Position numbers and translations under genes: made by a program
The notes under the pieces: model-generated
What the model saw: only the letters and a program-made list of their open reading frames with translations
Told to the model about the DNA's origin: nothing
The model's database searches: none
Shown: in pieces, positions 4,059-27,999 of the stretch
Numbering within the stretch: position 1 is the first letter of the stretch
Layout of the letters: the number at the start of each line of letters is the position of its first letter
Origin: an uncultured Planctomycetaceae bacterium
Lineage (GTDB): Bacteria > Planctomycetota > Planctomycetia > Planctomycetales > Planctomycetaceae
Length of the DNA stretch: 64,000 nt
Direction: 5' to 3'
Assembly (NCBI GenBank): GCA_963815195.1
Contig: CAWFGE010000020.1
Coordinates: forward strand, 1 to 64,000

Positions 4059-4877
4059 ATGGCGAAAAAACGTTCCCGCACTTCACGTTCCGCTGCACAG
4101 AAAACACCACACCCTAACGCCGGCAGCGAGACCGAATATGGACTGGGATTCACGGGCAGGCACATTGTGCTGCTGCGTGACGATGGTGTAAAGGAAGGAC
4201 TTCAAGCAATCAAGACCGCCGCGGGTTTGGCTGAGGTGTGTAACTCCGCTGATTACGAGGCGGCGGCAGTGGAGATGGCTGAGGCGGAAAATGCTGAAGT
4301 TTTCGTCCTGGATAAGTTGAAGGTCGCTATCGTAAATGCCGACGCAACCCAAGTCGTCGGGTTGACGGCGGCCGCGGCCGAAAACGGTGCGATCGTCGCC
4401 GTTGAGCCGGAACGGATGATGTACGCTCTGACTGTTCAAAACGAGTCACTTTTGCAGTTCCCGCTCCAATATTTGACGGGGTATAAGGACGCTGTCAACC
4501 ACTTGTATTCGTCGTTGACCGGTGCACCGTCTGAGACTGAAGCCGCGGCTGCTGCTGTGCTAAGTTACGCCGACAATGCTCAGTTCACGTGGGGTTTGCA
4601 GGCGACACGCGTGAGTCAGTCGCAGTTCAGCGGACGTGGCATTCGTGTTGCAGTGCTCGACACAGGCTTCGATCTTGACCACCCCGACTTCGTAGGTCGC
4701 ACCATTTTCAGCCAATCGTTCATTCAGGGCCAAGCTGTAAGCGATTTGAATGGTCACGGCACGCACTGTATCGGTACTTCGCTCGGACCCCAGCACCCGG
4801 CTGGCGGAGTTCGGCGATATGGCTGTGCATTCCGAGCTGAAATCTACGCTGGTAAGGTGTTGAGTAATGGTATTTGA
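4059..4877 (+). pseudogene. S8 subtilisin-family serine peptidase, 3'-truncated
   Basis: Catalytic Asp (VAVLDTG) and His (GHGTHCIGT) present; ORF stops at GKVLSNG and no GTSMA serine motif follows. Confidence 0.85.
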
Positions 4878-5190
4878 CCCCATCGCGAGTCATGTCCAGA
4901 ACGTCAGACAATTCCTGTAATGAGATTGTCGGGGTATCCCGCATCAACGAGAGAATGCGGTCCGACGTCTCGTTTGAGGTAGTGATTGGGGTAGTCTTTG
5001 GGGTAGTCCCTGCTACCTCATTGTCGCCCCGTAAATGGTCTGGATTGGCAGTGCGTTGAACAGATACGCCTGCTGTTTCAAAGTCGTATGCGGGCGATCG
5101 TCCCCAGGATTCAATGTAACCCGCCCGGAAAAACGCCCCCGCTAGCAAGGGATGGAACGGCTGCGATAGGTGGTGTGATGGAAAGCTGAT
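4866..5190 (-). pseudogene. C-terminal remnant of a RecG-like ATP-binding/wHTH regulator
   Basis: SQPFHPLLAGAFFRAGYIESWGR motif plus HTH ILSLMRDTPTISLQELSDVLDMTRDGVKYH; both ends missing. Confidence 0.65.
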
Positions 5191-5204
5191 TATTTCAGGT
5201 CGTA

Positions 5205-6392
5205 TCACTTCTTGCGACCTTTCTTTTTCCGTTTCGTCGGTTTGCTTTGCTTCGATTTTGGAGTGGCGGGCAATTGTGCAACAGCCTGTTGCCCATTTGG
5301 TGGATCCCCTTCCCCCGACTGTGATTCCGCCAGTTCGTAGAATTCGTGGAGTTTGGCCTGCAACAGCTTCTTGTCCGGCAATCGAGTCTGATACTCGGCG
5401 ACCAGAGCGGGCGACATGGCCCGGCTCAAGGCGTATTCGACGACTTCGTGGTTCTTGGTGGCGCAGAGCAGTACGCCGATTGATGGCTGCTCGTGCGGTT
5501 TCTTCACGTCGCGGTCGAGGGCTTCCAGGTAGAACTGGAGTTTGCCCAGATGCTCCGGCTCGAACTCGACGACCTTAAGTTCGAACGCGACCAGGCAGTT
5601 GAGCGCCCGGTTGAAGAAGAGCAGGTCGAGTTCAAAGTCTCGTCCGCCGACCTGAACCGGGTAATGACTGCCGACGTAGCAGAAGTCCCGGCCAAGTTCG
5701 ATCAGGAATTTCTTGAGTTGCTCGACCAGACCGCGTTGGAGGTCGGCTTCGGAATGTCCCGGCGGAAGGTCGAGGAACTCGACGAGATAACTGTCCTTAA
5801 AGAGAGTTGCGGCATCGGGGTGTAATTGTCGCACCGGCGGTGAGACTTTTGCCGGGGACATGACGACCCGCTCGAAAAGCGCTCCGTTGATCTGGCGTTC
5901 CAATTCTCGGCTCGACCACTTCTCGGCAGTCGCCATGCGGAGGTAGAACTCGCGTTCCTCCGCCCGCTTCGACTTGCCCAGGATGAGCAGATTGTGGGTC
6001 CAGGGCAATTGTGTCAGCAGTGCCGACACTTTTTCGTCCCCTCGGTAGGTCTCGTAGAACTGCCGCATCCGAAACAGGTTACGGCGGGTGAATCCCCGCT
6101 GGCTGGGATGCGTCTGGGCGATGTAGGCGGCTAGTTGATCGACCACGCCTTCGCCCCAGGCCGCTGATTCAATCTTGCGGCTGATGTGCTCGCCGATGTT
6201 CCAGTAAAGCTCGATCAGCGTCGTGTTGACGGCGGCGACGGCCCGGCTTCGGGCGGCGTCGATCAGCTCCAGCACCGTGTCGAAGTCCGCCTGGTTGGGA
6301 GTCAATGCCGGTGACGACGAAGCGGATGGTTTTGATTTCGGGCGGCCTTTACCGGCGGCCGGAGCGGATTTCGTTTTTGAACGCTTCTTCAT
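5205..6392 (-). CDS. YhcG / DUF1016 PD-(D/E)XK nuclease-domain protein
   Basis: AVNTTLIELYWNIG, NLFRMRQFY, LPWTHN, WSSRELERQI, FLIELGRDFCYVG, DLLFFNRALNCLVAFELK. Confidence 0.93.
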   Translation of the reverse strand: MKKRSKTKSAPAAGKGRPKSKPSASSSPALTPNQADFDTVLELIDAARSRAVAAVNTTLIELYWNIGEHISRKIESAAWGEGVVDQLAAYIAQTHPSQRGFTRRNLFRMRQFYETYRGDEKVSALLTQLPWTHNLLILGKSKRAEEREFYLRMATAEKWSSRELERQINGALFERVVMSPAKVSPPVRQLHPDAATLFKDSYLVEFLDLPPGHSEADLQRGLVEQLKKFLIELGRDFCYVGSHYPVQVGGRDFELDLLFFNRALNCLVAFELKVVEFEPEHLGKLQFYLEALDRDVKKPHEQPSIGVLLCATKNHEVVEYALSRAMSPALVAEYQTRLPDKKLLQAKLHEFYELAESQSGEGDPPNGQQAVAQLPATPKSKQSKPTKRKKKGRKK

Positions 6393-6647
6393 GCCTGCTC
6401 CCGCACTTGAGGGAGTTCGGGACGATTGGCGTTCTCTTCAAGCAGTACGTACCGCCATCCTTCCGGTCCTTTCTCGGCACGGATGTCATATCCCCTTTCC
6501 CGCAACGCCTCGACGGATCGCGATACGGTGGGAATCGAGACGCCGACTCTCTCGGCCAGGGCGGGCGTCGAATAGTTGCCGGTTTCGATCAGCCGCAAAA
6601 TGGCCTCAAGCCGATCTTCGATTTCGCGGGAGGCGCTGATAACGCAT
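6389..6647 (-). CDS. HTH DNA-binding protein (apparent frameshift near 6632)
   Basis: STPALAERVGVSIPTVSRSVEALRERGY HTH; ATG at 6647 gives MRYQRSREIEDRLEAILRLIE if one extra base is removed; ATGA overlap with yhcG. Confidence 0.75.
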
Positions 6648-6971
6648 CGGGTTTTCCCCTAAGTGCAAGCAATACCATACGTCTATCCAACAGTGATAGG
6701 CTTGTCAACCGCACGGATGTCCGCGTTTCCGGTCCTGAATGGTGATGCCCTGCCAGGATTGAAATAAACGGCCAATGAATGGCCTTTGATGATTTTCCGC
6801 TGGTCGGGGGCGGATTCAAGTCCTTCTCCTCTCCTTGGGCCATTTCTGGGCGAATTCGGGCTGGTCTGTCTTGAGCGTATCCCGACCTCGATTCTTACTT
6901 CCTCCTGAATGCCATATTTCCGGTCCTCGTTGCCGGGATCGGCGGCGATAGAACTCGGTCCCCCGATCGAC

Positions 6972-6980
6972 TTATCCACA
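6972..6980 (+). promoter_or_regulatory. DnaA box
   Basis: Perfect TTATCCACA beside an AT-rich tract (6991-7030) and iterons. Confidence 0.75.
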
Positions 6981-7074
6981 GGCGGTGCCCGTTAAGGAAG
7001 TTATAATAATACTTGGAGTTAAACAGTTAGCCGCCCGGCATGCCGTTGATTTCGTGGAAGAATCGGGCGGTTCG

Positions 7075-7384
7075 TGCGCCTGATGGGCCGTGGAGTTGCA
7101 CTAATCGACCGTGGGGCGATGCGCTTAATAGGTCGAATGGCGTGCGCCTTATAGGCCGTGCCAATTCTACAGCCCGGCCGCGTGAAATCTCCACCGAAGC
7201 GATGCGCCTGATAGGCCGTGCCGCTCGCCGGCCGCGTTTCGCGGCTGATTTTTGCCGTTTCATTGGCCGCTGGCCGGTCCGAATGCGTTAAAAAGCTCAT
7301 TTCACCGCTCGTTTTCCGGTGCCGGCGCCTAATAGGCCGTGCCTACTCGCTGGTCACCGGCTCATTTACGCTTGATAGGCCGTG
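7075..7384 (+). repeat. Iteron array of the putative oriV (7 x 18 bp)
   Basis: Consensus TGCGCCTNATAGGCCGTG at 7075, 7096 (degenerate), 7120, 7143, 7203, 7324 and 7367, at the 3' end of repA. Confidence 0.85.
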
Positions 7385-8317
7385 CTCGTCCCCCCTCACC
7401 TCATTGAATCGCAACGATTTCGAGGCGATGCCGCGGGCGATGCGGCGGCGGGGATGGCGCGGCGACTCGAATCGGGGGTCGTCGGCCGGGAGGCGGTCGC
7501 GTTTCAGGAAGTGGACGATCTCCTCCCCCTCCTCGTTCTTGTGGAGCATGGCGGTGTATTCCGGCAGGGAATCGGCTTCGACCACCTTGCGCACGTCGAT
7601 GGCGAAGTCGGAGAAGCGCGATGTCGAACCGGACTTCTCGTAGAGTTGCCGCATGGTGAACTGCCAGCCCAGTTCCTGCTGGCCGGCGTGCTTGCGGGCG
7701 ACGCGGTACAGCCAGCGCTCGATGCCCCCGGTGAGCAGGAAGTAATCCTCGTGGATGGTGAGCACACCGCCCTTCATCAGGATGCCGTCGAACAGCCAGT
7801 CCGGCAGCGTCATCGTCATGCCGGTGGTCTCCCCGCTGTGCTCGTCGGTCACCTCGGTCCAACTTTCCAGCCAGTGGAAGGAGGCGGCTTTCTTGCGGCC
7901 TTCGGCGCGGATGTTGGTCCGCACGGCCGTGTGCGTGAGCCGGTCGAGGGCGGCCCGCAGCCGGCGGTAATGTTCGCCTCCGGTCGGGCGGCGGATGGAT
8001 TTGAGCAGGTTGTGCGGGTGGAACTGCACGACGCGGCTGGGCGTCTGCCCCCGGTCGAGGGCTTCGGTGATCTGCGTCGAGGCCCAGATGAGGATGTCGG
8101 CATCCCAGATGGTGGCGATCCCGAATTTCGGGTTGGCGCTGACTTCGACCCACACGTCGCCGACATTGTATTCGATTGGCGTGAAGCGGGGTTTCTTTGC
8201 CAGGCTGAAGAACGGCCGCTCCATCGTGTCGCGCTGGTCGCGGATGGGGATGTCCGCGAAGTTCGCGGCGAACAGGTCGGCCTGGTGATCTCCTTTGGGC
8301 GGGAGCCGTTTGGTCAT
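7343..8317 (-). CDS. repA: Plasmid replication initiator protein A (RPA family)
   Basis: RDQRDTMERPFFSLAK, GIATIWDADILIWA, YFLLTGGIERWLYRVARKHAG, QLYEKSGS. Confidence 0.9.
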   Translation of the reverse strand: MTKRLPPKGDHQADLFAANFADIPIRDQRDTMERPFFSLAKKPRFTPIEYNVGDVWVEVSANPKFGIATIWDADILIWASTQITEALDRGQTPSRVVQFHPHNLLKSIRRPTGGEHYRRLRAALDRLTHTAVRTNIRAEGRKKAASFHWLESWTEVTDEHSGETTGMTMTLPDWLFDGILMKGGVLTIHEDYFLLTGGIERWLYRVARKHAGQQELGWQFTMRQLYEKSGSTSRFSDFAIDVRKVVEADSLPEYTAMLHKNEEGEEIVHFLKRDRLPADDPRFESPRHPRRRIARGIASKSLRFNEVRGDEHGLSSVNEPVTSE

Positions 8318-8450
8318 GCGTCGTCCCCGGTCGTCGTTGGGTTTCGCCGTGCGGCGAAGCTGATTCGGACACTAAAGGAAGACGGCCGGCGGTTCAAACG
8401 AAAACCGCAGGCCCGGCCTGCGTGCGAGGCCCCTCTCCCGCCGGCGTGCG

Positions 8451-8801
8451 TTACTTGAGGTAGCCGTTGTCGCGCAGCCAGGGTTCGAGGGCTTCTTCCA
8501 GAATGTCCTGGAGCGTGTGCGGGGTGACGCCGTTGAGTTGCCTCTCCAGCGAGGCCCGCTTGAGGGCGGCACCGAAGTCGGCCCGGATGCGGGTGGTCAG
8601 CGGTGTGCGGTTGATGGCGCTGCGGGACTGCCCCTTCCCTTCGCGGGTCTCGGCCGCCGGTGCCGCAGGCGGGGTTTCCGGCGGTTTCGGCTTGCCGGAA
8701 TACACGAACGCTTTTTCGAGCGAACGGTCCGGCCCGGCGGGATTCAGCCCCTCGACCAGCGACCGGCGTTCCTTGGTGGCGACATCGGTTTTGGTTTTCA
8801 T
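8451..8801 (-). CDS. Small partition partner protein (ParG-like, C-terminal ribbon-helix-helix)
   Basis: 116 aa, ATGA-coupled to parA; flexible N-terminus, then PLTTRIRADFGAALKRASLER...LQDILEEALEPWL. Confidence 0.7.
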   Translation of the reverse strand: MKTKTDVATKERRSLVEGLNPAGPDRSLEKAFVYSGKPKPPETPPAAPAAETREGKGQSRSAINRTPLTTRIRADFGAALKRASLERQLNGVTPHTLQDILEEALEPWLRDNGYLK

Positions 8802-9475
8802 GCGGTGGCCCTTCTTTTCGGTTGCCGGCGGGACGCCTTGATCCCGCGCGCTTCGGGGAGCACTTCGCGGAACAGCGCGTTGACCTCGGCCGTCGCGTCC
8901 CGCCCGCGGTGGCCGAGTTGCCAGACGACGGCCCCCTGCCCCGGCGCATCGGCGTAAATCTGTTTGAGGGTCAGCGCCGTTTTCGCGACGGGGAGTTCCA
9001 GCGCCCCGGCCGCGTCTTTCATGTCCTGGGTCAGCCGATAGTTCTTGCCGACCATGCTGAGCACGATCACGGCTTTGGGCAATTTGCCGCGAATGTCCTG
9101 GGCCTGGCGCAGGACGTTGGTGGCCTGGGCGATGCACCGAACTTCGAGCATGCTGGCTTTGCACGGGACGATGGCGCGGTCGGCCCGCAGCAACAGCGCC
9201 CGGCTGGTCTCGGTGTTGCTCCCCGGCCCGTCGGCGACGACGTAATCGCACTGCTGCCCGAGCGCCGGCAGACGGTCGAGGATTTCATCCGGGTCGTTGA
9301 GCCGGACCGTTTTGACGTCGGGGGCGGCCTCTTTGGCCCATTCGGACGAGGATTGCTGCGTGTCGCAGTCGGCGAGGATGACGGAATGCCCCTGCTCGTG
9401 CAGCCAGGCGGCGAGATGGACGGCGATGGTCGATTTCCCGACTCCGCCCTTGGAATTGGCGATCGCGATGATCAT
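8798..9475 (-). CDS. parA: ParA family partition ATPase (short type Ib)
   Basis: MIIAIANSKGGVGKST deviant Walker A; ADCDTQQS; VVADGPG. Confidence 0.93.
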   Translation of the reverse strand: MIIAIANSKGGVGKSTIAVHLAAWLHEQGHSVILADCDTQQSSSEWAKEAAPDVKTVRLNDPDEILDRLPALGQQCDYVVADGPGSNTETSRALLLRADRAIVPCKASMLEVRCIAQATNVLRQAQDIRGKLPKAVIVLSMVGKNYRLTQDMKDAAGALELPVAKTALTLKQIYADAPGQGAVVWQLGHRGRDATAEVNALFREVLPEARGIKASRRQPKRRATA

Positions 9476-9489
9476 GCGCCGGACACTAC

Positions 9490-9970
9490 ACCACCTGCCG
9501 ACATGCTGGCAAGCAATATGTGCATCAGGCTGGCATGTCGTGTCGCCAGCTTCCCGGCCTGTCATCCTGCGGGCATGCCGTCAAGCCAGCATACCGGCGT
9601 GCCGGTCGGCAAGATGCCCAGCCGGATTTCCAGAAAGCGGGCTGGCTTGCCAGCCTGCCGACAAGCTGGCAAGCCGGACGGTGAGCATGCATGAAGGCTT
9701 GCAAACATGACGGCAGGCTGTCCGGCAATGATGCAAGCAGGACAACAAGCCTGCACGAAAGCACGATGGCCTGCCGGCACGTCGCCGGAGGGCGTTTCCG
9801 GGCAAGCAATCCAGCAACCTTGCCTGCCAGCATGACGGCTTGCTTTCCGTCCGGGCATATTGCAAGCAGGCGGGCTTGTCATCATGCCAGCATGTCGGCA
9901 TGTCATCCGGCCGGGTGGCAAGCAAGCTGGCAAGCCTGCCAGTCAGTCGGCTGTCTGAGCGGCCGGCTGG
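9490..9970. repeat. Degenerate short-period GC repeat tract, candidate centromere
   Basis: Dense GCAAGC/GCTTGC/GCATGC/GCTGGC/GCCAGC motifs with GC recurring about every 4 nt, directly upstream of parA. Confidence 0.6.
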
Positions 9971-10104
9971 AACCGTTCCAGTCCGTCCTATGCCACGCAT
10001 AGGGAAGATGCCTGTCAGCATTTTGCTTTGCTCCGCTTTGGTGCTCGCGCCGCGAATTTTTCCAGTGCACGCGGCGCTGCTCGCGGTGTGAGACGGGAGT
10101 CTGA

Positions 10105-10140
10105 CACCTGCGTTTTCACCTGCGTTTCCACCTGCGTTTC
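10105..10140 (+). repeat. 3 x 12-bp tandem repeat CACCTGCGTTTY
   Basis: cacctgcgtttt cacctgcgtttc cacctgcgtttc. Confidence 0.9.
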
Positions 10141-10257
10141 GCCCGGCGGAGGGAGGGCGGAAAACACCGGCAGGGAGGCCGTGAAACCGCCCCCTCGACG
10201 GGCGGCGGTTTCACGCAGGGACTCGCCGGCGGAACGCCGGCGGCCGCGTTGCATGGC

Positions 10258-10311: not shown

Positions 10312-10662
10312 TTACGCTTCCGGCGTGCGGCAATCCGGGCAGACTCCGCAGTAATTCGCCTGCGGCAGATCGAAGGCAGGCTCGATGTCGCTCCAGCCTT
10401 CGGCGATCGCCTGGGCTTCGTTCTGGATATGTCCGCCGGCGTCGCAGTATTGGCAGACCAGTGTAAAGATCGGCCGGCCGCCGGCCGTGCGGCGGAGAAC
10501 GTTCGCGATGTAGGCGTCGATCTCCGTGGGTGTGTACTGGTAGGGATAGAATCCTCCCCTGGCCAGCCATTCCTTGAGAGCCAGGGCGAGTTCGCGGGCG
10601 GTCTCGTGGTCGCCGTCCCGCATGGCGTGGTACATGTCGAGATAGGTTTGATTGGGGTCCAT
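10312..10662 (-). CDS. Hypothetical protein with a C-terminal Cys-rich (Zn-binding) motif
   Basis: 116 aa, GGAG RBS; CQYC...CGVCPDC. Confidence 0.7.
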   Translation of the reverse strand: MDPNQTYLDMYHAMRDGDHETARELALALKEWLARGGFYPYQYTPTEIDAYIANVLRRTAGGRPIFTLVCQYCDAGGHIQNEAQAIAEGWSDIEPAFDLPQANYCGVCPDCRTPEA

Positions 10663-10729: not shown

Positions 10730-11641
10730 TCAGGCGGTGGCCGCCTGCGGTTGCAGGCCGTGCAGGAAGTCCACGGCTTTGCTGGCGTGGGAAGCGGCGG
10801 AAAACACCGCCCGCTTGTCTTCCTTCAGGACTTTCAGCCACGAGTCGATATAGCTGGCGTGGTCGTCCCGCACTTCCGGCGTGAGGGCGAGGTCGGCACA
10901 CAGGAAGGCGGAACCGAGTTCGGCGACTAACTCCTCGATGGCGTAGCCTTCATCTCCGAATCTCTTGCGGCCGAAATCGCGATTGAGCCGGGACGGGTGC
11001 CGCGTCCAGTGGGTCAACTCATGGGCCAGCGTCGCCGCGTGCGACTCGGCGTCTCGGAACGTCTCAAAAGGGGGCATCTGCACGTAGTCGTCGGTGATGG
11101 CGTAGTAAGCCCGGTTCCCGCCCGTGCGGATGTCCGCCCCGGTGTTGGCGAAAAACGCCTCGGCGTGCTCGATGCGTTTAAGTATCTCGGCGGGCGGTTG
11201 GGCCAGGGCGAAAAAGTGCTGCGGCAACCCTTCGCACTGTTCGGCATTGAATACGCTGTATTCTTTGAGGAATGGAATCTCCTCCTCGACTTCCCGCCCG
11301 TCCTCTTTGGTCTCGGTCTTCTTGAACGTGCTGGCGTACACGACGGGGGAACCGTGTTCGCCTTTCTTGACGTGTCCGCCGAATTCTTTCGCCTGTTGGA
11401 AGGTGAGCCAGTAGGGGCAGGAAAACCCCTGCAACTCGGCGGCCGCCCAGAGCATCAAAATGTTGATGCCGTGATAGGGCAGGCCGTTGTGACGCAAGGG
11501 CCGGGTGATGCGGCCGGCGGCGTTTTCGGCGTTCCAGGGTTTGAACCAGGGCCTAACGCCTTGTTCGAGTTGGGCGACGATGTGCGACGTTACGCGGGTG
11601 TAAACGTCAACGCGGTTCTTGGTGCTGCTGCGGGTGGTCAT
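10730..11641 (-). CDS. ardC: ArdC antirestriction ssDNA-binding protein (DUF1738 plus zincin-like domain)
   Basis: DVYTRVTSHIVAQLEQGVRPWFKPW, YHGINILMLW, WLTFQQA, VFNAEQ, HELTHWT, YAIEELVAELGSAFL, HASYIDSWL. Confidence 0.95.
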   Translation of the reverse strand: MTTRSSTKNRVDVYTRVTSHIVAQLEQGVRPWFKPWNAENAAGRITRPLRHNGLPYHGINILMLWAAAELQGFSCPYWLTFQQAKEFGGHVKKGEHGSPVVYASTFKKTETKEDGREVEEEIPFLKEYSVFNAEQCEGLPQHFFALAQPPAEILKRIEHAEAFFANTGADIRTGGNRAYYAITDDYVQMPPFETFRDAESHAATLAHELTHWTRHPSRLNRDFGRKRFGDEGYAIEELVAELGSAFLCADLALTPEVRDDHASYIDSWLKVLKEDKRAVFSAASHASKAVDFLHGLQPQAATA

Positions 11642-14344: not shown

Positions 14345-14347
14345 CGG

Positions 14348-15746: not shown

Positions 15747-15802
15747 AGGAAAGTCCTTTCCGTGTGTGTGTGGGCGGGCCTCGCAGCCCGCCCGGTTGAG
15801 TT

Positions 15803-21081: not shown

Positions 21082-21117
21082 GTATGGTTCGCCTAAAGTT
21101 GGTTAGGCGAACCATAC
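21082..21117. other. Symmetric dif/loxP-like recombination site
   Basis: GTATGGTTCGCCTAA-AGTTGG-TTAGGCGAACCATAC: perfect 15-bp inverted arms, 6-bp asymmetric spacer, one base from the recombinase start codon. Confidence 0.8.
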
Positions 21118-21176: not shown

Positions 21177-21692
21177 ATGAATAAAAAGCGACTTCAAGAC
21201 TGGGCCGTCAATGACCTGGAACGACTGCTTCGGGACTTGAAGAATTTCTTCCGCGGAAGGTCCGTGCGCGACGGAAATGACGCGGAAGAACTTGCTCAGA
21301 AAGTCGTCTTTAAAGGACTGGAGCAGGGCGAACTCGATGCCCCCCGAGCCTTTCTGTTTGGAATAGCGAGGAACGAATTCAAAACATATTTTCGAGAGCG
21401 GATACGTCGGCAGAGGCTGCTCGGGGAACAGATTCCGCTGGACCAGGTCGCGGGGGGAGACGACCCATTGGATTTATCGATCCGGAATGAGTTGAAGACA
21501 ATTGTTGGTAAGGGCATGGACCAATTACCGCATTCAACTGCGCGATACGTTGACTTGTATTTGAGCGGTGAGTGTTTTGCGGAAATCGCTAGGCTGGTCA
21601 ATGTTCCGGAACAGGTCGTCCGTCGTGCGATTGGGAGGGGATTGAAACAGCTTCGGCCTCTGCTAGTCGATTATGGCGATGTGGGTCAATAG
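21177..21692 (+). CDS. ECF-type sigma-70 family factor
   Basis: DAEELAQKV, RAFLFGIARN (region 2); FAEIARLVNVPEQVVRRAIGRGLKQLR (region 4). Confidence 0.8.
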   Translation: MNKKRLQDWAVNDLERLLRDLKNFFRGRSVRDGNDAEELAQKVVFKGLEQGELDAPRAFLFGIARNEFKTYFRERIRRQRLLGEQIPLDQVAGGDDPLDLSIRNELKTIVGKGMDQLPHSTARYVDLYLSGECFAEIARLVNVPEQVVRRAIGRGLKQLRPLLVDYGDVGQ

Positions 21693-22240: not shown

Positions 22241-22451
22241 TGGATTCCTTTGCTCAGATTGTCTCGGACCAGCGCTGCCAATGTCTGGACGTTAAGAGAC
22301 GCGGCGGGGAAATGTCAAGAAAATCGTTGCTGATTCGCAAAAAAGTTGTCGCTTCAAGCGGGTGTGCGCGTGGAATAAGTGGGGGCGTCGCCTTGTACGT
22401 GGGCGAGGCTGGCCCCTGGTAAACCCCATTTTATCAAGAAAGGGCGAGACG

Positions 22452-23279
22452 ATGGAAAGGAAATCGCTGAGGCGAGAACTCGTGCGAAAGCTCCTCGATG
22501 AATTCATCCTCCCGGAACAGGTGCGAAAGAAATTCAACGAACAGCGGATTCGTGAATTGGGGGAGAGCATGCTGCTGCATGGGCAACTTCAGCCTGTCGG
22601 GGCACGGACCGATGGGACGCTGCGGTGGGGCTTTCGGCGATGGCACGCGGCGAAACTGGTGGGGCTGGACTCCCTGGACGCGCTCATTACGGACGAAGAG
22701 TTGAGTGAATCGGAAATCATCGTCCTGCAACTTACGGAAAACCTGCACCGGCAATCGCTGACGGCCTGGGAAATGTACGAGGCGTGCGACATGCTGTTGC
22801 AACTTCGGCCCGACTGGAAAATCACCGATCTGGCAAACCAATTGAATCGCGACCCGAGTTCTTTGACTCGAACCCTGTCGCCGTCTCGCACCATTCCAGC
22901 CGTCAGAGAGGCGCTCAAGGCGGGAAAGATCGGCGTCAGCGACTGCTACGCGATGAGCAAAGAGAGCGAAGATCGGCAGGCGGAACTGCTGGAGATGAAA
23001 CTCAACGGTGCGAGCCGCGACGAAATCGAACGCGCCCGCCGGCAACCGAAGCCGAAACCCAAACTGAAGCGCAAGACTCCGCGTCCCCGATTGAGTGAAA
23101 TGCGATGCCCGCTTCCGGGAGGCGGGAAATTGTCGCTGTGCGCGGAAACGCTCACGATGGACGCCGTTTTAGAGATGCTGATGGAGATGGTCGAGGCGGT
23201 GAAGAATTCGATTCAGGAAAATCATGACATCAGCCAATTCGCGTCGACGACGTGCGGGAACTTCAAGGCAGGAGGGTAG
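22452..23279 (+). CDS. ParB/RepB/Spo0J family protein
   Basis: QVRKKF, ELGESMLLHGQLQPV, GFRRWHAAK, LQLTENLHRQSL, HTH ITDLANQLNRDPSSLTR. Confidence 0.88.
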   Translation: MERKSLRRELVRKLLDEFILPEQVRKKFNEQRIRELGESMLLHGQLQPVGARTDGTLRWGFRRWHAAKLVGLDSLDALITDEELSESEIIVLQLTENLHRQSLTAWEMYEACDMLLQLRPDWKITDLANQLNRDPSSLTRTLSPSRTIPAVREALKAGKIGVSDCYAMSKESEDRQAELLEMKLNGASRDEIERARRQPKPKPKLKRKTPRPRLSEMRCPLPGGGKLSLCAETLTMDAVLEMLMEMVEAVKNSIQENHDISQFASTTCGNFKAGG

Positions 23280-23283
23280 GACG

Positions 23284-24741
23284 ATGTTTTTCAGAAGAAA
23301 GAAACAGAAACAGAAAGCGAAGCCCAAGGTGTCCGATCCGCTCGATACGCCTCTGCTGTCATGGTCGGAGCACGACCGCTTGACGGTGCGAGGTTTGCTC
23401 AACGGGGGCGTGGCCATACTGGGGGCTACGGGTAGCGGGAAAAGCAGTTCGTCCGGCCGCCTGCTCGCGCGTAGCATCCTGGCCCAACGTAACAACGGCG
23501 GGCTGTGGATATGCGCCAAGCCGGACGATGCTGCGCATGTGCGGGCGCTTTTTGCGGAGGCGTCTCGGCTCGATGATCTGGTGGTTTTTTCACCGGAGGA
23601 GAATTGGCGGTTTAACTTTCTGGATTACGAAATGCGCCGGGGCGGACATACCCGGAACATCGTCAAGCTCATCATGACGATCGGCGAAACGCTTCGGGCC
23701 GGTGAATCTAAGGGCACGGAGGACGCGGCTTTTTGGGAGATGGCACAGGAAAGAATGCTGTACAACGCGGTGCAGATTCTCAAAGTGGCTTTCGATCGCG
23801 TGGATGCCCCGACGTTGCAGCGATTCATCATGGGGGCGGCGCACGGTCCGGAGGAGATCGGCACCAGTGCCTGGCGGGACGGGTTTCATAATCAATGTAT
23901 AAAGGCGGCGTATCTGAAGCCGAAATCGCCCGTCGACGAACACGATTGCCGTTTGGCGTTCGACTACTGGCTGAGTGAATATGTGAACATGGCTCCTAAG
24001 ACACGAAGTTCGATTGAAGTGGGCGTCAACGGAACTTTACATGTGTTCAATACCGGAATAGTTCGATCGCTTGTTTCGGATAAGTCAAACATTTCTCCTG
24101 ACGATATGTGCAACAAAAAATGGGTCATGGTCGATATGTGCCCGTCGGAATGGGGCGAGTTAGGAAAAATCGTCAATTCTGGTTGGAAGTACCTTACCCA
24201 ACAAATGATCCTCCGCCGCGAACCGGTGGAAGGCGATCCGATTGTTGTCATTTTTTCGGACGAAGCCCAGGAATTTTTAACGTCTGTCGATAGTTCGTTC
24301 CTGGCACGTTGCCGTTCGCACTATGGGTGCATGTGTGTACTTACGCAATCTATTTCAAGCCTGTATGCGGTGCTCAAGGGGCCGGCGGGCCGTCACCAGG
24401 CCGACTCGCTGCTGGGGAACTTCGGACACCTCGTAGTGCATGCCTGCGATCCGATTTCGGCGGATTGGGCCAGCCAAAAGCTGGGAAAATCCCTTGAGAC
24501 TTTTATCGGCGGCTCGATGGCTCCGAGCGGAAACGTGTGGGACGAACTGGTGGGAAAATCCCAGTACACGGCGAACTTCAGCGAGCACTATGAGCCGATC
24601 TTGCAGCCGAACGTTTTCATGAACGGGCTGCGAACCGGCGGCAAAGTGAATGGACTGATTTGTGACGGGATTGTCATACGCAACGGGCGGCCCTTCTCTA
24701 ACGGTCAGAATTACCTGCGGGTCGCGTTCTCGCAGAAGTGA
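23284..24741 (+). CDS. Type IV coupling-protein-like ATPase (TraG/TraD/VirD4 family) with no obvious transmembrane anchor
   Basis: Walker A GATGSGKS, FNFLDYE, Walker B IFSDEAQ, ARCRS, LTQSIS, LLGNF, SADWASQKLG. Confidence 0.85.
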   Translation: MFFRRKKQKQKAKPKVSDPLDTPLLSWSEHDRLTVRGLLNGGVAILGATGSGKSSSSGRLLARSILAQRNNGGLWICAKPDDAAHVRALFAEASRLDDLVVFSPEENWRFNFLDYEMRRGGHTRNIVKLIMTIGETLRAGESKGTEDAAFWEMAQERMLYNAVQILKVAFDRVDAPTLQRFIMGAAHGPEEIGTSAWRDGFHNQCIKAAYLKPKSPVDEHDCRLAFDYWLSEYVNMAPKTRSSIEVGVNGTLHVFNTGIVRSLVSDKSNISPDDMCNKKWVMVDMCPSEWGELGKIVNSGWKYLTQQMILRREPVEGDPIVVIFSDEAQEFLTSVDSSFLARCRSHYGCMCVLTQSISSLYAVLKGPAGRHQADSLLGNFGHLVVHACDPISADWASQKLGKSLETFIGGSMAPSGNVWDELVGKSQYTANFSEHYEPILQPNVFMNGLRTGGKVNGLICDGIVIRNGRPFSNGQNYLRVAFSQK

Positions 24742-24834: not shown

Positions 24835-25395
24835 ATGCAAACGAACCCATCGCAATCATCACAGGATGATCGGTTCAGTATGAAGGACAGCTTCAATGCG
24901 ATGCTGTTCGTTGCCCAGGCGCATGCCGCTTGCCTTTGGGTGTTCCTCCGCAGGGGCATCGGCGTCGAGGCGCTTCGGGGACATGGCGCTGCCGCCTTCA
25001 TGCTGATGCTCATAATCTGCGCCGCCGGCTCGGAGTCGATGCTGGTTTATCTGGCCCTGTGGACCGTCTTCGCGGCGCGCCAGCGGTGGAAGGCGGACCC
25101 GGAGCAGCATTCGCGATACACGGGCTTCCCGGCCGTGGCGATCAAGATTCCGGGTTTCCGGTCGGAGAAGCAGGCCAAGGCCGCCGAGTGCCTGCTGTGC
25201 CTGTTCGTGGGCGTGCTGCTCATGCCGATCGACGAGGGGATCGGCGCTTTCGTGGCCGCGGGCACTTTTTCTCTGGGCTTCGTCGAAGGCGTCAGCCGGG
25301 AGATTAACCGGCAGCGTGTGCAACGGATGCGCGACGCACAAATTGAGCATCAACAACTCGCGGAGCGGTTTCGCGGGGAACGTGACGACTTTTAA
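24835..25395 (+). CDS. Hypothetical membrane protein
   Basis: About four hydrophobic segments; HSRYTGFP motif; charged C-terminal helix. Confidence 0.75.
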   Translation: MQTNPSQSSQDDRFSMKDSFNAMLFVAQAHAACLWVFLRRGIGVEALRGHGAAAFMLMLIICAAGSESMLVYLALWTVFAARQRWKADPEQHSRYTGFPAVAIKIPGFRSEKQAKAAECLLCLFVGVLLMPIDEGIGAFVAAGTFSLGFVEGVSREINRQRVQRMRDAQIEHQQLAERFRGERDDF

Positions 25396-25409
25396 TTGAA
25401 AGGAAAGCT

Positions 25410-25685
25410 ATGGCTGATGAACTCGAAGCACAGGACCGGCCGTCTTTTTCGGGACCGCTCCTGGCCGCATTACGCCAAGGATCAAAGGAAATGGTCGCGG
25501 TTTTACCTGCATTTCCTGATAGTATACAGGTCGTTAATGAACCAGGCACTTTGGGAAACCCGACTCCGCAATTGGTGACCGAGCAAATCAGCGCCGGTCA
25601 GGACTTTAACCGCATGCTCGACGGCTACGCTGCGATGTCGCAGGATGGCCCCGAGCGGTCTCAAGAATCGGAGATTGAACGATGA
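25410..25685 (+). CDS. Hypothetical protein
   Basis: 91 aa, AAGGA RBS, ends ESEIER. Confidence 0.65.
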   Translation: MADELEAQDRPSFSGPLLAALRQGSKEMVAVLPAFPDSIQVVNEPGTLGNPTPQLVTEQISAGQDFNRMLDGYAAMSQDGPERSQESEIER

Positions 25686-25992
25686 TCGACTCACCCAATG
25701 TTCGACGTTAGACGTTATTCGTTTTCGGCGTGATTGCCTGGATGCTCTACATGATGACGTTCCGCACGGAGGAATGGCTGAACCTGGTTGAGTCGGACCG
25801 GAAACAGAAAGAGACAATGTTGAAGGGCCTTGGTAAGGCCGCAAAGGGAGGCGTCTGGCTCGCGAGCTTGTTCATAAAGAGAAAGTGAATTGGGGTTGTC
25901 GCACTGGGCGCGACTTCGGAACTGGAATGCCTATGTTCATCTGGGAGCGGGGAACGCGGTTCCCCGCCATCTTTCCACGAAAGGCAAAAAAA

Positions 25993-26199
25993 ATGGAAGA
26001 GTATTACGTACCGATTGGTCTCGGCGTTTTTATGCGTGATTTGCGCTTGATTGACTCACGGAGCGACGAGCGACGAATCAAGACAATCCTGGAGGCAAAC
26101 GACCAAATGTGGAACGACATCATCAGCAAACACCAAGAAACGATCGCGAAGGCGTATGAGGAGGGACACCCCTGCACGTTCAGGATCAAACGAAATTAG
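25993..26199 (+). CDS. Hypothetical protein
   Basis: 68-aa ORF MEEYYVPIGLG... Confidence 0.45.
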   Translation: MEEYYVPIGLGVFMRDLRLIDSRSDERRIKTILEANDQMWNDIISKHQETIAKAYEEGHPCTFRIKRN

Positions 26200-26570: not shown

Positions 26571-26771
26571 ATGCTTTCGATCAAGGATGTTGCAGCGCGA
26601 CTGGGGGTTTCGGTTTCGTTCGCGCATAAGCTCGTTCGCAACGGCGACATCGAAAGCTATCGATTCGGGCGATGTCGCCGGGTCAGCGAAGAGCAACTTC
26701 AAAGGTATCTTGAGGAGTCCTTGGAGGATTCGGTAAGCAGCGTCGCGGATCGCAAATTGAAATACTTTTAG
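26571..26771 (+). CDS. Excisionase-like HTH protein
   Basis: MLSIKDVAARLGVSVSFAHKLVRNGDIESYRFGRCRRVSEEQL; AGGAGG RBS; convergent with and overlapping the integrase stop. Confidence 0.9.
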   Translation: MLSIKDVAARLGVSVSFAHKLVRNGDIESYRFGRCRRVSEEQLQRYLEESLEDSVSSVADRKLKYF

Positions 26772-27796
26772 GCCCGATTCTCCGTTGAATCACTTTTAGG
26801 GTCTCTGGGGGCCTTCACGCGTTTGGCTTGCTCGTGCAAGAAGGCCCGTTCGCGGGCGAGGTGCTGGTATGTCCGAGCGACTTGGCTGGCATCCTGATGG
26901 CCCATCAAATGGCCGAGCACAACGGAATCGACATCGTTGGTCAAGCCTTCGGTGGCGTAAGAATGTCGGACCCCGTAAGCGATGCAGCGGAAGCCGACTT
27001 TTTTCGAGATGCGGGTGAGTCGGCACTTGATGGCGTCTTTGGTCCAGGCGTTGCCCGCCGTGTTGCGAAACAGAGGGCCGTTCGGATGTTGGTCAATCAA
27101 CCGTGAGACGATGGCCGCGGCCTCGTCGTCCAAAAAAATGACGCGTTCGTGGACGCCGCCCTTGGCGAGGGATGGCGGCAAAACACAGATTTGCTGATCG
27201 AGATCAACATGAATTGCTTCCAGGACGCGGGCCTCTTGGGGACGACAACCGGTGGCCCAAAGGAAATCCAGCAAATCGCGAAATTCCGGGTCGGGGACGT
27301 GAGCGAGAATTTGGCCCCACTGTTCAGAGGTGTAATAGATTTCTCGGCGCGTGCGGCGGGGTTTCTTAATTTTCGGCAAAGGAGATTTCTCGATGTGCCC
27401 CTCTTCCAAGGCCCAATTGAAAACCCGCAACACGATCGTGATGGCGTCGTTCTGCGACGTGGTGGAGAGGTCCAACTCGTCGATCCACGCAGTGAGGTGC
27501 TTTTTGCGAAGCTTGGCGATCGGAAGACGCGTCCCCAGAGTCGCAATGAAGCTTTGGAGATAGTGCTTGTGTTTTTCGAAGGTGGCCGGTTTTCGGTGGG
27601 TTCGGCACCAGTCGAGGTAGACATCGCAAAGCTGGGCGACGGTGGCGAGGGTTTCCACGGAGGCTTGTTCGGCCATGATTTCGTGGTAACGCTGCCAGGC
27701 TTGTTTTTTGTCTTTGCCGAGGGGGTATTGTTTTCCGCGGATGGTGACGTACCAACTTTTGGTGAATTTGCGGAAAAACGGCTTGGGTTGTCGCAT
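26768..27796 (-). CDS. Phage-type tyrosine integrase
   Basis: N-terminal arm-like domain, ATGCRPQE, AKGG, YGVRHSYAT, LMGH, ARTYQH; starts 130 bp from the tRNA 3' end. Confidence 0.93.
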   Translation of the reverse strand: MRQPKPFFRKFTKSWYVTIRGKQYPLGKDKKQAWQRYHEIMAEQASVETLATVAQLCDVYLDWCRTHRKPATFEKHKHYLQSFIATLGTRLPIAKLRKKHLTAWIDELDLSTTSQNDAITIVLRVFNWALEEGHIEKSPLPKIKKPRRTRREIYYTSEQWGQILAHVPDPEFRDLLDFLWATGCRPQEARVLEAIHVDLDQQICVLPPSLAKGGVHERVIFLDDEAAAIVSRLIDQHPNGPLFRNTAGNAWTKDAIKCRLTRISKKVGFRCIAYGVRHSYATEGLTNDVDSVVLGHLMGHQDASQVARTYQHLARERAFLHEQAKRVKAPRDPKSDSTENRA

Positions 27797-27844
27797 CGTT
27801 TGGCCTCCCGAGTATGGAACCAGCGAGTCGGAAGGCTCGTATTT

Positions 27845-27879
27845 GGGACTCACCACGTGCCGGTGGTGAGTCCCTTTTT
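27845..27879. terminator. Terminator-like hairpin between tRNA and integrase
   Basis: GGGACTCACCAC-gtgccg-GTGGTGAGTCCC followed by TTTTT on the plus strand. Confidence 0.6.
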
Positions 27880-27925
27880 GTGCAACAAACTGTGCAATTC
27901 TTGAAGTGAATCGTCCTAAGTCAAG

Positions 27926-27999
27926 TCGGGGCGACAAGATTTGAACTTGCGACCTCTGCGTCCCGAACGCAGCGCTCTACCAGGCTGAGCCACGCCCCG
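27926..27999 (-). tRNA. tRNA-Pro (anticodon CGG)
   Basis: Minus strand CGGGGCGTGGCTCAGCCTGGTAGAGCGCTGCGTTCGGGACGCAGAGGTCGCAAGTTCAAATCTTGTCGCCCCGA folds as a cloverleaf; CCA not encoded. Confidence 0.97.

Follow-up and report, generated by a model that had tools for sequence, protein, structure and literature searches.

A probable plasmid-derived mobilisable element, lacking attR, beside a tRNA-Pro gene of a planctomycete

Genes for integration, replication, partition and mobilisation lie side by side in the window (the whole stretch of 64,000 nucleotides analysed), which raises the question of whether they form one mobile element and whether this copy could still leave the chromosome. The module genes listed in a first-pass annotation were real and correctly placed, the RHH partner of ParA and the T4CP-like ATPase being the weaker assignments. 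We consider it fairly probable that the stretch is one plasmid-derived mobilisable element, integrated in the chromosome and one of a modular family met repeatedly in Planctomycetota, and that this copy is incomplete and most likely trapped. The gene identities, the recurrence of the family, the missing attR and the scar at the left border are the established part of this reading.

Gene content and setting

From tRNA-Pro(CGG) at the right, the locus continues leftwards with a tyrosine integrase and an excisionase, then with genes for a ParB-like protein, a T4CP-fold ATPase and an ECF-like sigma factor. Next come an Xer-like recombinase beside a palindrome, a MobF/TrwC relaxase and ArdC, and lastly ParA and a RepA of the RPA type with its five iterons. 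The contig continues for 484 kb, indicating a chromosomal setting, and the right flank carries thiamine, flagellar-export and NADH dehydrogenase genes. Two further split genes were noticed just right of the element. The features are as follows.

4868..4869: left breakpoint, a scar and not an att site; divergence point of the window and C19 copies
4869..5204, minus: winged-helix gene remnant, truncated at both ends; ORF 4720-5208(-) crosses the breakpoint
5205..6392, minus: YhcG/DUF1016 PD-(D/E)XK nuclease, cargo (YhcG_C E 5.5e-54; DUF1016_N E 2.6e-45)
6389..6598, minus: small HTH_11 regulator (HTH_11 E 1.2e-7)
6995..7385: candidate oriV, AT-rich stretch and five iterons GCGCCTnATAGGCCGTGC (from repeats and composition)
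7343..8317, minus: RepA, RPA family (PF10134; E 5.8e-82, full-length domain)
8451..8801, minus: ParA partner, RHH-like by sequence pattern only (frame conserved between ParA and RepA in 5/36 TrwC loci)
8798..9565, minus: ParA partition ATPase (CbiA E 1.8e-16)
9490..10150: repeat field upstream of parA, candidate centromere (from repeat families)
10312..10662, minus: orf10312, small conserved ORF accompanying ArdC (adjoins ArdC in 3/36 loci; PHROG 'HNH endonuclease' E 6.9e-7)
10730..11746, minus: ArdC-type anti-restriction/zincin protein (ArdcN E 8.2e-42; MPTase-PolyVal E 1.3e-55)
14467..16012, minus: conserved leader genes upstream of the relaxase, orf14467 (methylase-like), orf15258 and orf15803
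16013..16804: low-GC intergenic region, putative oriT
16805..19488, plus: MobF/TrwC relaxase-helicase with a broken frame (ORF 16900-19488; TrwC E 2.1e-66; NCBIfam MobF 178 bits, cut-off 100)
19636..19995, plus: orf19636, conserved relaxase partner (directly after TrwC in 36/36 related loci)
20012..20977, minus: Xer-like tyrosine recombinase (Phage_integrase E 3.1e-24)
21082..21117: perfect 15+6+15 palindrome GTATGGTTCGCCTAA-AGTTGG-TTAGGCGAACCATAC, candidate recombinase site, at a GC drop from 0.64 to 0.56
21177..21692, plus: ECF-like sigma factor (Sigma70_r2 28.6 bits, cut-off 24)
22362..23279, plus: ParB-like protein, upstream partner of the ATPase (ParB_N 39.2 bits, cut-off 26.3; TIGR00180 71.4 bits, cut-off 58.45)
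23224..24741, plus: T4CP-like ATPase without N-terminal membrane anchor (Walker A GATGSGKSS, DEAQ)
24835..26199, plus: membrane protein orf24835 and small ORFs 25410, 25730 and 25885 (kept after the ATPase in G154:C7, G154:C11 and G040:C111)
26571..26771, plus: excisionase (HTH_17 E 4.6e-13; NCBIfam 'excise' 49.6 bits, cut-off 28.8)
26768..27904, minus: tRNA-targeting tyrosine integrase (ORF 26768-27937; Pfam Phage_integrase E 2.2e-13)
27925..27999, minus: tRNA-Pro(CGG), integration target and only remaining att side (sole tRNA in the window)

The tRNA gene is the single CGG-anticodon tRNA-Pro of the assembly, and the integrase and excisionase that had been proposed lie beside it, the integrase start being probably the Met near 27796. 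Of 6 fetched loci with an integrase homologue, 5 had it immediately behind a tRNA gene, and sister elements at tRNA-Pro carry a large serine recombinase in place of the tyrosine integrase and excisionase.

At the other end, RepA, the only RPA protein of the assembly, and five iterons of 17-18 nt at 7075-7385, adjoining an AT-rich stretch (about 6995-7030), bore out the proposed iteron replicon. A 64% identical homologue of the HTH_11 regulator adjoins RepA in G031:C34, and DNA similarity to G031 and G032 starts at the candidate oriV (6951-7173). As to the proposed ParA/RHH pair, ParA stood, with 158 bits against NCBIfam ParA_partition (E 1.9e-46; under the cut-off of 180), a Walker A motif KGGVGKST and a true start probably at Met ~9475; its partner was weaker, matching no profile in Pfam, NCBIfam or PDB and appearing RHH-like only by our reading of its conserved C-terminus. 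Upstream of parA, 21-nt and 57-nt repeat families (9494-9941) and a 12-nt array in three copies (10105-10140) make up the repeat field, which may serve as the centromere.

The relaxase was confirmed as MOBF by family (E 3.4e-29 against PDB TrwC), but not as an intact gene: its frame breaks near 16905-16915, which leaves the N-terminal 35 residues with YY..DYY out of frame, whereas relatives read through. The break may be an assembly error; comparison with short-read contigs of the same strain revealed single-base indels at 6632, 7099, 12625, 19628 and 20929, and over 16741-16943 the window is one base shorter than a related contig. Profile searches found no family assignment for orf19636. The leader genes orf14467 and orf15803 were present in 13/36 and 16/36 related loci, respectively, the former with weak N6_N4_Mtase and PHROG methyltransferase matches. 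Examination of the putative oriT region (GC 0.46-0.52) revealed a 20-nt inverted repeat at 16103-16163 and two copies of CTTTGCAATTGCGG (16328 and 16436); the conserved upstream motif of the relatives was absent from 16013..16804, and an oriT could not be named. Motifs TGCR, HSFR and GH..Y were seen by eye in the Xer-like recombinase, which together with the palindrome agrees with the second recombination system that had been described.

The sigma factor and the ParB-like protein were both as annotated, with region 4 of the former under its cut-off and no copy of it at the 36 related loci, and the latter adjoining an ATPase homologue in G154:C7, G154:C11, G325:C29 and G116:C24. The T4CP-like ATPase itself scored under every Pfam cut-off; the annotation draws its support from homologues, 5/5 of which exceeded the TraG-D_C cut-off, and from a predicted model with TrwB, Cag-beta and DotL as best folds (E about 2e-5; the model is moderate, with pLDDT 59, and good for residues 80-345). 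A remnant of the orf24835 region was observed at G000:C12:11555-12191. The first-pass annotation saw no VirB4 or pilus genes and noted that a complete MPF locus just left of the window would indicate an ordinary ICE; neither VirB4 (PF03135) nor TrbI/VirB10 (PF03743) was found by profile search in the whole 8.87 Mb assembly (94.6% complete). The reading as one plasmid-like integrated mobilisable element with no mating-pore locus is thus supported in its last point by these searches, and in its unity by the recurrence described below.

Every activity that we ascribe to the element is predicted from sequence. In an intact member, a recombinase at a tRNA gene, here the tyrosine integrase with the excisionase at tRNA-Pro(CGG), would integrate and excise the element. 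RepA acting on the iterons, with ParA, its small partner and the repeat field, would maintain the free circle, and the Xer-like recombinase would resolve multimers at the palindrome. The MobF relaxase and its fixed small partner would nick oriT, and the soluble T4CP-like ATPase, always paired with the ParB-like protein and a small membrane protein, would pass the DNA to a channel encoded outside the element, ArdC possibly shielding the incoming strand.

Recurrence in Planctomycetota

All 36 relaxase-related loci (36/36) came from MAGs of Planctomycetota, and many of the contigs were of Mb size. In flanks of no more than 10 kb on each side of the relaxase, orf19636 occurred in 36, orf15803 in 16, orf14467 and the ParB-like gene in 13 each, ArdC and ParA in 8 each, the RHH-like gene in 5, RepA in 3, and Xer and the T4CP-like gene in 2 each; an integrase or excisionase homologue occurred in 0/36. 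The order RepA(89%)-RHH-ParA-orf10312-ArdC-TrwC-orf19636, with HTH_11 and YhcG past RepA, was found in G031/G154:C34. In G116:C24, the T4CP-like gene, the ParB-like gene, orf19636, TrwC, ParA and RepA(74%) are contained in about 12.5 kb, and G154:C11 has orf19636, the ParB-like gene, the T4CP-like gene, a recombinase and tRNA-Pro(GGG) in this order. Such linked recurrence of modules in other Planctomycetota chromosomes suggests a family member and not a chance stack; the idea of unrelated stacked insertions is weakened by G116:C24 and G154:C11.

The first-pass annotation regarded RPA-type repA as mainly alphaproteobacterial and the element as a possible cross-phylum mosaic. The best plasmid relatives of RepA are indeed alphaproteobacterial, at no more than 54% identity (54% for an Azospirillum plasmid RepA), but copies 74-89% identical with the same synteny occur in other planctomycete genomes. 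Nor is RPA foreign to the phylum, as a survey by Quinonero-Coronel, Devos and Garcillan-Barcia reports it in 13/21 planctomycete plasmids (10.1101/2024.01.22.576637).

The left border and alternative readings

Position 4870 had been given as the left end of the element. Window positions 393-4868 match C19:1-4474 at 99.6% and are identical over 2157-4868, and the two copies part exactly at 4868|4869. An S8 peptidase ORF (4059-4877) spans only profile positions 1-91 of 288, the gene being whole on C19; ORF 4720-5208(-) has HTH_24 as its sole match (E 9.6e-4, below cut-off), and from our reading of its translation the winged-helix domain appears to be cut at the junction. For integrase homologues, exact 44-nt and 47-nt repeats beginning 43 nt before the tRNA 3' end were found in 2/5 tRNA-adjacent loci, 8-15 kb away. 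A 43-47 nt tRNA 3' repeat was absent from the window, and elsewhere in the assembly only tRNA-Pro genes themselves matched when as many as 5 mismatches were allowed in 29 nt. With genes truncated on both sides and the tRNA repeat missing, 4868|4869 was rejected as a site-specific end and is regarded as a rearrangement scar. Since the second att site is missing and the left border is a scar, the earlier statement that the element can excise is unsupported for this copy; because the far end has been replaced by the junction and the relaxase frame is broken as assembled, the copy is most likely trapped.

The left edge lies 4.9 kb from the contig end, inside the repeat common to C19, and overlaps in repeats are frequent among the contig ends of this assembly, so that attR may lie past the contig end or the join may be chimeric. 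That the junction is an assembly artefact, with C20:1-4868 misattached and the true continuation on another contig or unassembled, seems very improbable to us: C19 and C20 both begin inside the same 4.5 kb sequence, similar overlaps occur at other contig ends, and all 17 differences, four of them single-base indels, are confined to the outer 2.2 kb, a pattern to be expected where contig ends are poorly polished, but the inner 2.7 kb is identical and leads straight into element DNA, and a tblastn search with 31 proteins of the window (28 of the element and three of the junction and flanks) gave only remnants on contigs C7 and C12, with no further element genes on other contigs. Among the listed pieces of low-depth metagenome contigs, none bridged 4868|4869. 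An intact and active element, as put forward in the first-pass annotation, which excises, replicates and is mobilised, with attR in unassembled DNA or 1-4868 as cargo and the frame break as a homopolymer error, is unlikely. RepA, ParA, the integrase, the excisionase and the Xer-like recombinase each have an open frame of full length that contains the expected motifs, the iterons and palindrome are intact, the assembly has single-base indel errors and the two split genes to the right, and the contig ends nearby within a repeat; against this, the junction truncates the peptidase gene as well as the winged-helix ORF on the element side, and the 8.87 Mb assembly holds no tRNA-Pro 3' repeat comparable to those of related integrases.

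It is also conceivable, though we think it unlikely, that a higher-GC RPA/MobF plasmid block (~7.0-21.0 kb) and a lower-GC tRNA-Pro island (21.1-28.0 kb) carrying the ParB-like gene, the T4CP-like ATPase, the integrase and the excisionase were recently joined by recombination at or near the Xer-like palindrome, giving a cointegrate and not a unit. The GC steps from 0.636 to 0.556 exactly at 21.0-21.1 kb, DNA similarity to G031 is confined to 6951-19960, and the GC of the RepA-TrwC block remains at 0.60-0.64 where that of the hosts ranges over 0.59-0.67. In G154 the two blocks are also found separately: C34 runs from RepA to orf19636 without the ParB-like/T4CP-like pair, and C7 has this pair with a serine recombinase and tRNA-Pro but no relaxase in 8 kb upstream. 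The low number of relaxase loci with T4CP-like homologues (2/36), and the lack of an integrase or excisionase within 10 kb in all 36, likewise speak against our main reading. However, G154:C11, G116:C24, L038, L034 and L037 show both blocks joined in the order seen here, the ParB-like gene follows the relaxase in 13/36 loci, the relaxase of plasmid pK2D_1 adjoins homologues of the ATPase (26%) and the ParB-like protein (31%), and a second palindrome-arm copy was not found at the other GC boundary. We retain the reading of one integrated element of a modular family.

Comparison with known systems

The first-pass annotation knew of no described planctomycete element class of this kind, but the kind is already known, at survey level. 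The same survey reports five chromosomal RPA genes interpreted as integrated plasmids, a plasmid backbone that is usually RPA with iterons and type I partition, and, across 21 chromosomes, 29 MOBF relaxases that are frequently accompanied by a T4CP but in no case by a full MPF (10.1101/2024.01.22.576637). These chromosomal MOBF+T4CP loci and RPA genes share phylum and gene kinds with our element; the survey treats them as counts and does not describe the anatomy of elements, their borders, integration sites or recombinases, although its supplementary tables may list such loci. At 30% identity, the planctomycete plasmid RPAs of the survey form no clusters with outsiders, unlike the RepA described here with its Azospirillum relative.

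Two planctomycete mobilisable plasmids, PALBO2 of Paludisphaera (NZ_CP019084.1) and pK2D_1 (CP036351.1), have MobF relaxases 41-42% identical to that of the element. The ArdC of PALBO2 is 66% identical, and in pK2D_1 the relaxase also adjoins ParA and a tyrosine recombinase. Both are free circular plasmids without a tRNA-side integrase and excisionase, whereas the element is integrated, and tblastn gave no RepA homologue in PALBO2 or in the fetched 30-70 kb half of pK2D_1.

SGI1-type integrative mobilisable elements are described as carrying mobilisation genes together with an integrase and an excisionase, as lacking a pore and as having a post-excision replicon (PMC7826253, PMC7433901). As far as these descriptions go, SGI1 resembles our element as an integrated island with all of these traits, and differs in phylum, replicon, relaxase and helper logic, and in that our copy lacks attR. 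The integrative plasmids of actinomycetes (AICEs such as pSAM2 and SLP1) insert at tRNA genes and encode Int, Xis and a replication protein. In place of a full type IV system they have a single transfer ATPase, an FtsK-like double-strand DNA translocase that is not known to work with a relaxase. The element described here differs from them in pairing a MobF relaxase with a T4CP-fold ATPase in place of an FtsK-like translocase alone.

Chromosomal setting and borders of the element

Contig C20 was 484 kb long, the window being its first 64 kb, and belonged to an assembly of 8.87 Mb in 25 contigs with a GC content of about 0.60. When all ORFs of the window were scanned against Pfam, NCBIfam and PHROGs, nearly every gene named in the first-pass annotation was borne out. 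The right edge of the element was formed by the following feature:

27925-27999, minus strand, tRNA-Pro(CGG)

From right to left, the gene order was 1) this tRNA, a tyrosine integrase, an HTH_17 excisionase, three small ORFs and a membrane protein (orf24835), 2) a 505-residue P-loop ATPase, a ParB-like protein, an ECF-like sigma factor and an Xer-like recombinase with its palindrome, 3) orf19636 (119 residues), a MobF/TrwC relaxase-helicase and three conserved leader ORFs, and 4) cargo (a signal-peptide protein), ArdC, ParA, its small partner and an RPA-type RepA with iterons, followed leftmost by an HTH_11 regulator and a YhcG nuclease. The integrase and excisionase lay directly after the 3′ end of the tRNA, placing a site-specific recombinase at the target-side border; the usual catalytic motifs were seen by eye in the integrase and the Xer-like protein, as was Walker A in ParA. 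To the right of the element were genes for a PQQ-propeller protein, thiamine synthesis, DUF1501/DUF1800, FliA, FlhF, FlhA and NADH dehydrogenase and, since these are ordinary chromosomal genes, the element sits in the chromosome.

It was also noticed that a beta-lactamase-family gene and a ClpC-like AAA+ gene (29738-31079 and 31259-33959) were each broken into two overlapping ORFs, being either pseudogenes or the result of single-base assembly errors. The IS at 39680-41467, with a DDE_Tnp_1_4 transposase, occurred in the assembly in no fewer than 15 near-identical copies. Also multi-copy were the 150-nt repeats of 37644-37799 and 39051-39201, and an 86-nt repeat at 947-1032 had a 99% identical copy at C20:285162-285247 and copies of about 75-80% on other contigs and in relatives.

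At the left edge, positions 393-4868 matched positions 1-4474 of contig C19 of the same assembly (99.6%, all 17 differences being left of 2157), and the two copies diverged exactly at 4868|4869. This 4.5-kb duplicate holds a PA-IL-like lectin gene, a DUF3616 gene and the 5′ part of an S8 peptidase gene. The peptidase gene continues intact on C19, and in the window it covers its profile only as far as position 91 of 288. The junction also cut into a winged-helix ORF on the element side, the opposite end of which was interrupted by the YhcG gene. Because genes are cut on both sides, the junction reads as a rearrangement scar and not as the product of site-specific recombination. Alternatively, 4868|4869 may be a chimeric contig join, or attR may lie further left, in favor of which C19 and C20 both begin within the shared sequence and repeat overlaps are frequent at contig ends of this assembly. 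Pieces from metagenome run X1, one of three runs kept as contigs, represented the same strain at low depth and were 100% identical to the window in both flank and element; no piece bridging the junction was present among the listed contig pieces from the three runs, at their low depth.

The reading as a scar was accompanied by the lack of a second att site. No repeat of the 3′ part of the tRNA was found in the window (pattern search tolerating at most 3 mismatches over 21 or 29 nt, and a k-mer scan), and when as many as 5 mismatches over 29 nt were allowed, the sole matches in the assembly were the tRNA-Pro genes themselves. An inverted 11-mer, TTGTCGCCCCG, at 5021 was rejected as an att remnant, about 4 such matches being expected by chance according to our estimate. 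Integrase homologues (35-48% identical) were present in 9 of the 400 other planctomycete genomes sampled, all of the same family (9 of its 20 genomes), and lay directly after a tRNA gene in five of six fetched loci. Two of these five had a second att site, as exact repeats of 44 and 47 nt located 14.5 and 8.2 kb away, respectively; the att repeats of the relatives begin 43 nt before the tRNA 3′ end. Of the two att sites that bound an IME, the second was thus not found for the window copy. An empty tRNA-Pro(CGG) site could not be reconstructed from three same-genus genomes, because the neighborhood of this tRNA was rearranged on both sides. We conclude that the window copy is truncated on the left and has no attR. 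What the first-pass annotation observed is real and for the most part correct, and its reading as a plasmid/IME hybrid holds in kind, with the truncation and the absent attR as exceptions; replication and transfer by this copy are putative. Its statement that the element can excise does not carry over, excision by the copy as assembled being unlikely with attR absent from window and assembly.

A planctomycete family and its recombinases

With the relaxase as query, 36 loci were obtained, all 36 from Planctomycetota MAGs (46-74% identity) and many on contigs of Mb size. Co-occurrence was counted by tblastn of the window proteins within 10 kb on either side of the relaxase in these loci, the low counts being lower bounds because contig ends cut some of them. 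The partner orf19636 was present in 36/36, always directly after the relaxase, followed in frequency by the leader ORFs orf15803 (16/36) and orf14467 (13/36), the ParB-like gene (13/36), the genes for ArdC (8/36), ParA (8/36), the small ParA partner (5/36) and RepA (3/36), and the Xer-like and T4CP-like genes (2/36 each); integrase and excisionase were found within this distance in 0/36.

The nearest relative, on a 334-kb contig of genome G031 (apparently the same genome as G154), had the order RepA (89%), partner, ParA (82%), orf10312 (a small ORF beside ArdC), ArdC (77%), relaxase (74%) and orf19636, with the HTH_11 and YhcG gene past RepA, within a stretch of defence genes. At this side of RepA, locus L063 (G031/G154:C34:50794-66345) carried genes for an SNF2 helicase, YhcG, an OLD-family ATPase, a type III restriction-modification pair, DUF2130, and SIR2 with HerA. 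Homologues of the ATPase were found in 10 of the 400 other genomes sampled, and four of six fetched loci had the series ATPase, orf24835, orf25410 (missing in G325:C29), large serine recombinase and tRNA gene; three of the four also had a ParB-like gene upstream of the ATPase, and in the remaining one, G040:C111, the contig ended at the ATPase. Contig G154:C11 starts with orf19636, and therefore the relaxase and ATPase blocks are joined there as in the window, and G116:C24 carried ATPase, ParB-like, orf19636, relaxase, ParA and RepA (74%) within about 12.5 kb. Judged by gene order, the element appears to be a member of a recurring planctomycete family and not a chance stack; the possibility of unrelated stacked insertions, named in the first-pass annotation as what would refute it, is made less likely by the linked modules in G031, G154:C11 and G116:C24.

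At L064 (G032:C4:745126-745212), in another MAG, the RepA-relaxase block begins about 350 nt from a tRNA-Leu(TAA), on its 5′ side, and the relaxase was spread over several frames. Contig C7 of the window's own assembly (53342-54211 and 74001-75741) carried diverged YhcG, HTH_11 and ParA copies (74-86% DNA identity) without RepA, the YhcG copy being interrupted by about 20 kb that included an IS.

The GC content was 0.571 for 4.9-7.2 kb, 0.636 for 7.2-21.1 kb, 0.556 for 21.1-27.9 kb and 0.588 for the right flank, and the GC step coincided with the palindrome of the Xer-like recombinase. DNA-level similarity to G031 was restricted to 6951-19960, and the RepA-relaxase block had a GC content of 0.60-0.64 within hosts of 0.59-0.67. 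Thus, the blocks have had separate recent histories, though they are functionally linked across the family. The origin of the window copy as a recent cointegrate of two blocks is a live alternative, to which the step at the palindrome, the limits of similarity to G031 and the GC content that the RepA-relaxase block keeps in differing hosts all lend support, but the linkage of the blocks across the family argues against it.

Sequence comparison at the tRNA side of the family revealed that the end of the serine recombinase gene overlaps the tRNA in the four ATPase loci (Pro-CGG, Pro-GGG, Pro-CGG and Asn). In the window's own genome, contig C12 carried homologues of the three small ORFs (11555-12191) and a serine recombinase (12446-13933) that was 89% identical to that of G154:C7 and abutted tRNA-Pro(GGG). 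The region C12:11555-13991 is a remnant of a sister element, upstream of which no ATPase or ParB-like gene was found, and two same-genus genomes had that serine recombinase directly at tRNA-Pro(CGG), following the tRNA. The place that the serine recombinase has in the sisters is taken in the window by the tyrosine integrase with its excisionase; therefore, recombinases of two classes serve one family at the same tRNA genes. No repeats of the tRNA ends were found beside the elements of G116, G032 and G154.

Replication, partition and transfer genes

RepA matched RPA (PF10134) with an E value of 5.8e-82 and was accompanied by the layout of an RPA iteron replicon, with five iterons of 17-18 nt at 7075-7385 and an AT-rich stretch at 6995-7030. 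RepA, TrwC and the integrase were compared by their identities and distributions. The best plasmid relatives of RepA were alphaproteobacterial (Azospirillum, 54%; Roseomonas, 51%; sphingomonads, 44-49%), and other RPA genes of the sampled phylum were 33-47% identical to it. G192:C1, a complete chromosome of the same family, carried three RPA genes (L088, L091 and L093), of which the one compared was 68-74% identical to RepAs of Rhodobacterales plasmids. A survey of planctomycete plasmids states that RPA is their commonest initiator, and that the plasmid RPAs of the phylum form a clade of their own and the chromosomal ones another (10.1101/2024.01.22.576637). From these statements of the survey and the RPA genes in the sampled genomes, RPA as such is native to Planctomycetota. 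The association of RPA mainly with Alphaproteobacteria therefore does not apply to the type as a whole, while it agrees with the plasmid relatives of this RepA: going by protein identities, its lineage, common to several planctomycete genomes, appears nearer to alphaproteobacterial plasmids than to the other planctomycete copies seen.

ParA was clear by both Pfam and NCBIfam, its small partner was conserved, and repeats alongside constitute a candidate centromere. The partner gave no family or PDB match, and a profile of five homologues had no PDB hit at E <= 10; its conserved C-terminus may resemble strand-helix-helix, and the proposed ParA/RHH pair is a putative type Ib partition system. A perfect 15+6+15 palindrome 105 nt upstream of the Xer-like recombinase is a candidate Xer/cer-type site. 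A 12+6+12 palindrome was located upstream of the Xer homologue of G427:C17, and none like that of the window was found near those of L037 and L051.

The relaxase scored 178 bits against NCBIfam MobF (cut-off, 100), and its SF1 helicase part matched AAA_30 (E 2.5e-45). From residue 39 onward, its body could be aligned to TrwC of R388, the alignment taking in the histidine motif (DPQLHAHVFVFN, aligned with DPQLHTHAVILN), and relaxase domain and helicase were thus both present. Translated N-termini of 8/8 relatives had MxRxxQQ (MLRITQQ in the nearest), then a YY..DYY segment and then the relaxase domain. In the window as assembled, the first 35 residues (from 16805, with YY..DYY) were one frame off the body at a G run around 16905-16915, so that the catalytic-tyrosine segment was out of frame with the relaxase domain, whereas the relatives were continuous. 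The break may be an assembly error; same-strain short-read contigs showed five single-base indels relative to the window, and a related contig was one base longer over 16741-16943. A single additional G in the run would bring the frame back to that of the relatives. Alignment of the upstream regions showed GGTGAYATTG and a TTAAC..GTTAAC pair conserved in many relatives; this motif was absent upstream of the window relaxase, and no oriT was identified there.

The ATPase had Walker A and DEAQ motifs and fell below the Pfam cut-offs (T4SS-DNA_transf, 19.4 vs 20.1; TraG-D_C, 18.1 vs 22). Among its homologues (38-60% identical), scanned in five of the six fetched loci with G172 left out, 5/5 passed TraG-D_C and 2/5 T4SS-DNA_transf. 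An AlphaFold model (mean pLDDT 59) was good for residues 80-345 and unreliable in the C-terminal third; the best fold matches were TrwB, Cag-beta and DotL (E about 2e-5), to which all chains listed at E <= 0.001 belonged, 37 chains being reported at that level. A profile search of PDB gave DotL alone (E 0.008), and hhalign against the T4CP of plasmid PALBO2 gave E 0.016 with a probability of 2.8%. By inspection, the first 60 or so residues were basic and not hydrophobic, without an N-terminal anchor, and a gene for a small membrane protein follows the ATPase gene in relatives. The designation T4CP-like is thus upheld by the homologues passing TraG-D_C, the P-loop motifs and the fold, though not by the Pfam scores of the protein itself. 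Two further TraG-D_C genes were noticed in the same genome (C19:264393-264800 and C17:79138-79365), one near a contig end.

Profile searches of the whole assembly gave no match for VirB4 (PF03135) or TrbI/VirB10 (PF03743) and nothing above cut-off for AAA_10 (PF12846), in agreement with the first-pass annotation, in which no VirB4 or pilus genes were visible; the right flank consisted of housekeeping genes, and the VirB4-family ATPase and MPF set of an ICE were not found within the assembly. This agrees with the survey, which states that no planctomycete chromosome has a complete MPF (10.1101/2024.01.22.576637). We consider it improbable, if worth stating, that the ParB-like protein, the soluble T4CP-like ATPase, the small membrane protein, MobF and the partner ORF form a self-sufficient DNA-export system for which a VirB4-type pore is unneeded. 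If so, it would explain 1) the many relaxase/T4CP loci without complete MPF in planctomycete chromosomes, and 2) the spread of the family across hosts of differing GC content while exchanging the integration module at the same tRNA-Pro genes. An ESM Atlas search with orf19636 and orf24835 gave unnamed clusters only, most commonly from Planctomycetota, Verrucomicrobiota and Acidobacteriota.

Relation to known planctomycete elements

The kind of element described here, for which the first-pass annotation knew no planctomycete class, has already been recorded in Planctomycetota at the level of a survey; according to the same source, there is no report of conjugation among planctomycetes, and genetic tools for them are scarce (10.1101/2024.01.22.576637). 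What is new is the anatomy of the family, the swap of recombinase class at tRNA-Pro, and a soluble T4CP-like ATPase that has fixed partners; the relaxase/T4CP loci, for which the survey gave counts only, gain from the locus and its relatives an anatomy that is concrete and can be tested. The window copy is probably decayed and therefore of more use in leading to intact relatives than for experiments on itself. The RepA-iteron-ParA cassette is a compact candidate for trial as a shuttle replicon, and RPA replicons near those of alphaproteobacterial plasmids are present in planctomycete chromosomes (54% here; 68-74% in the complete same-family genome). The best plasmid matches of the relaxase were from Runella and three planctomycete plasmids (36-42%). 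The planctomycete plasmids PALBO2 (NZ_CP019084.1) and pK2D_1 (CP036351.1) have in common with the element ArdC, ParA, a tyrosine recombinase, a ParB-like protein and a homologue of the ATPase.
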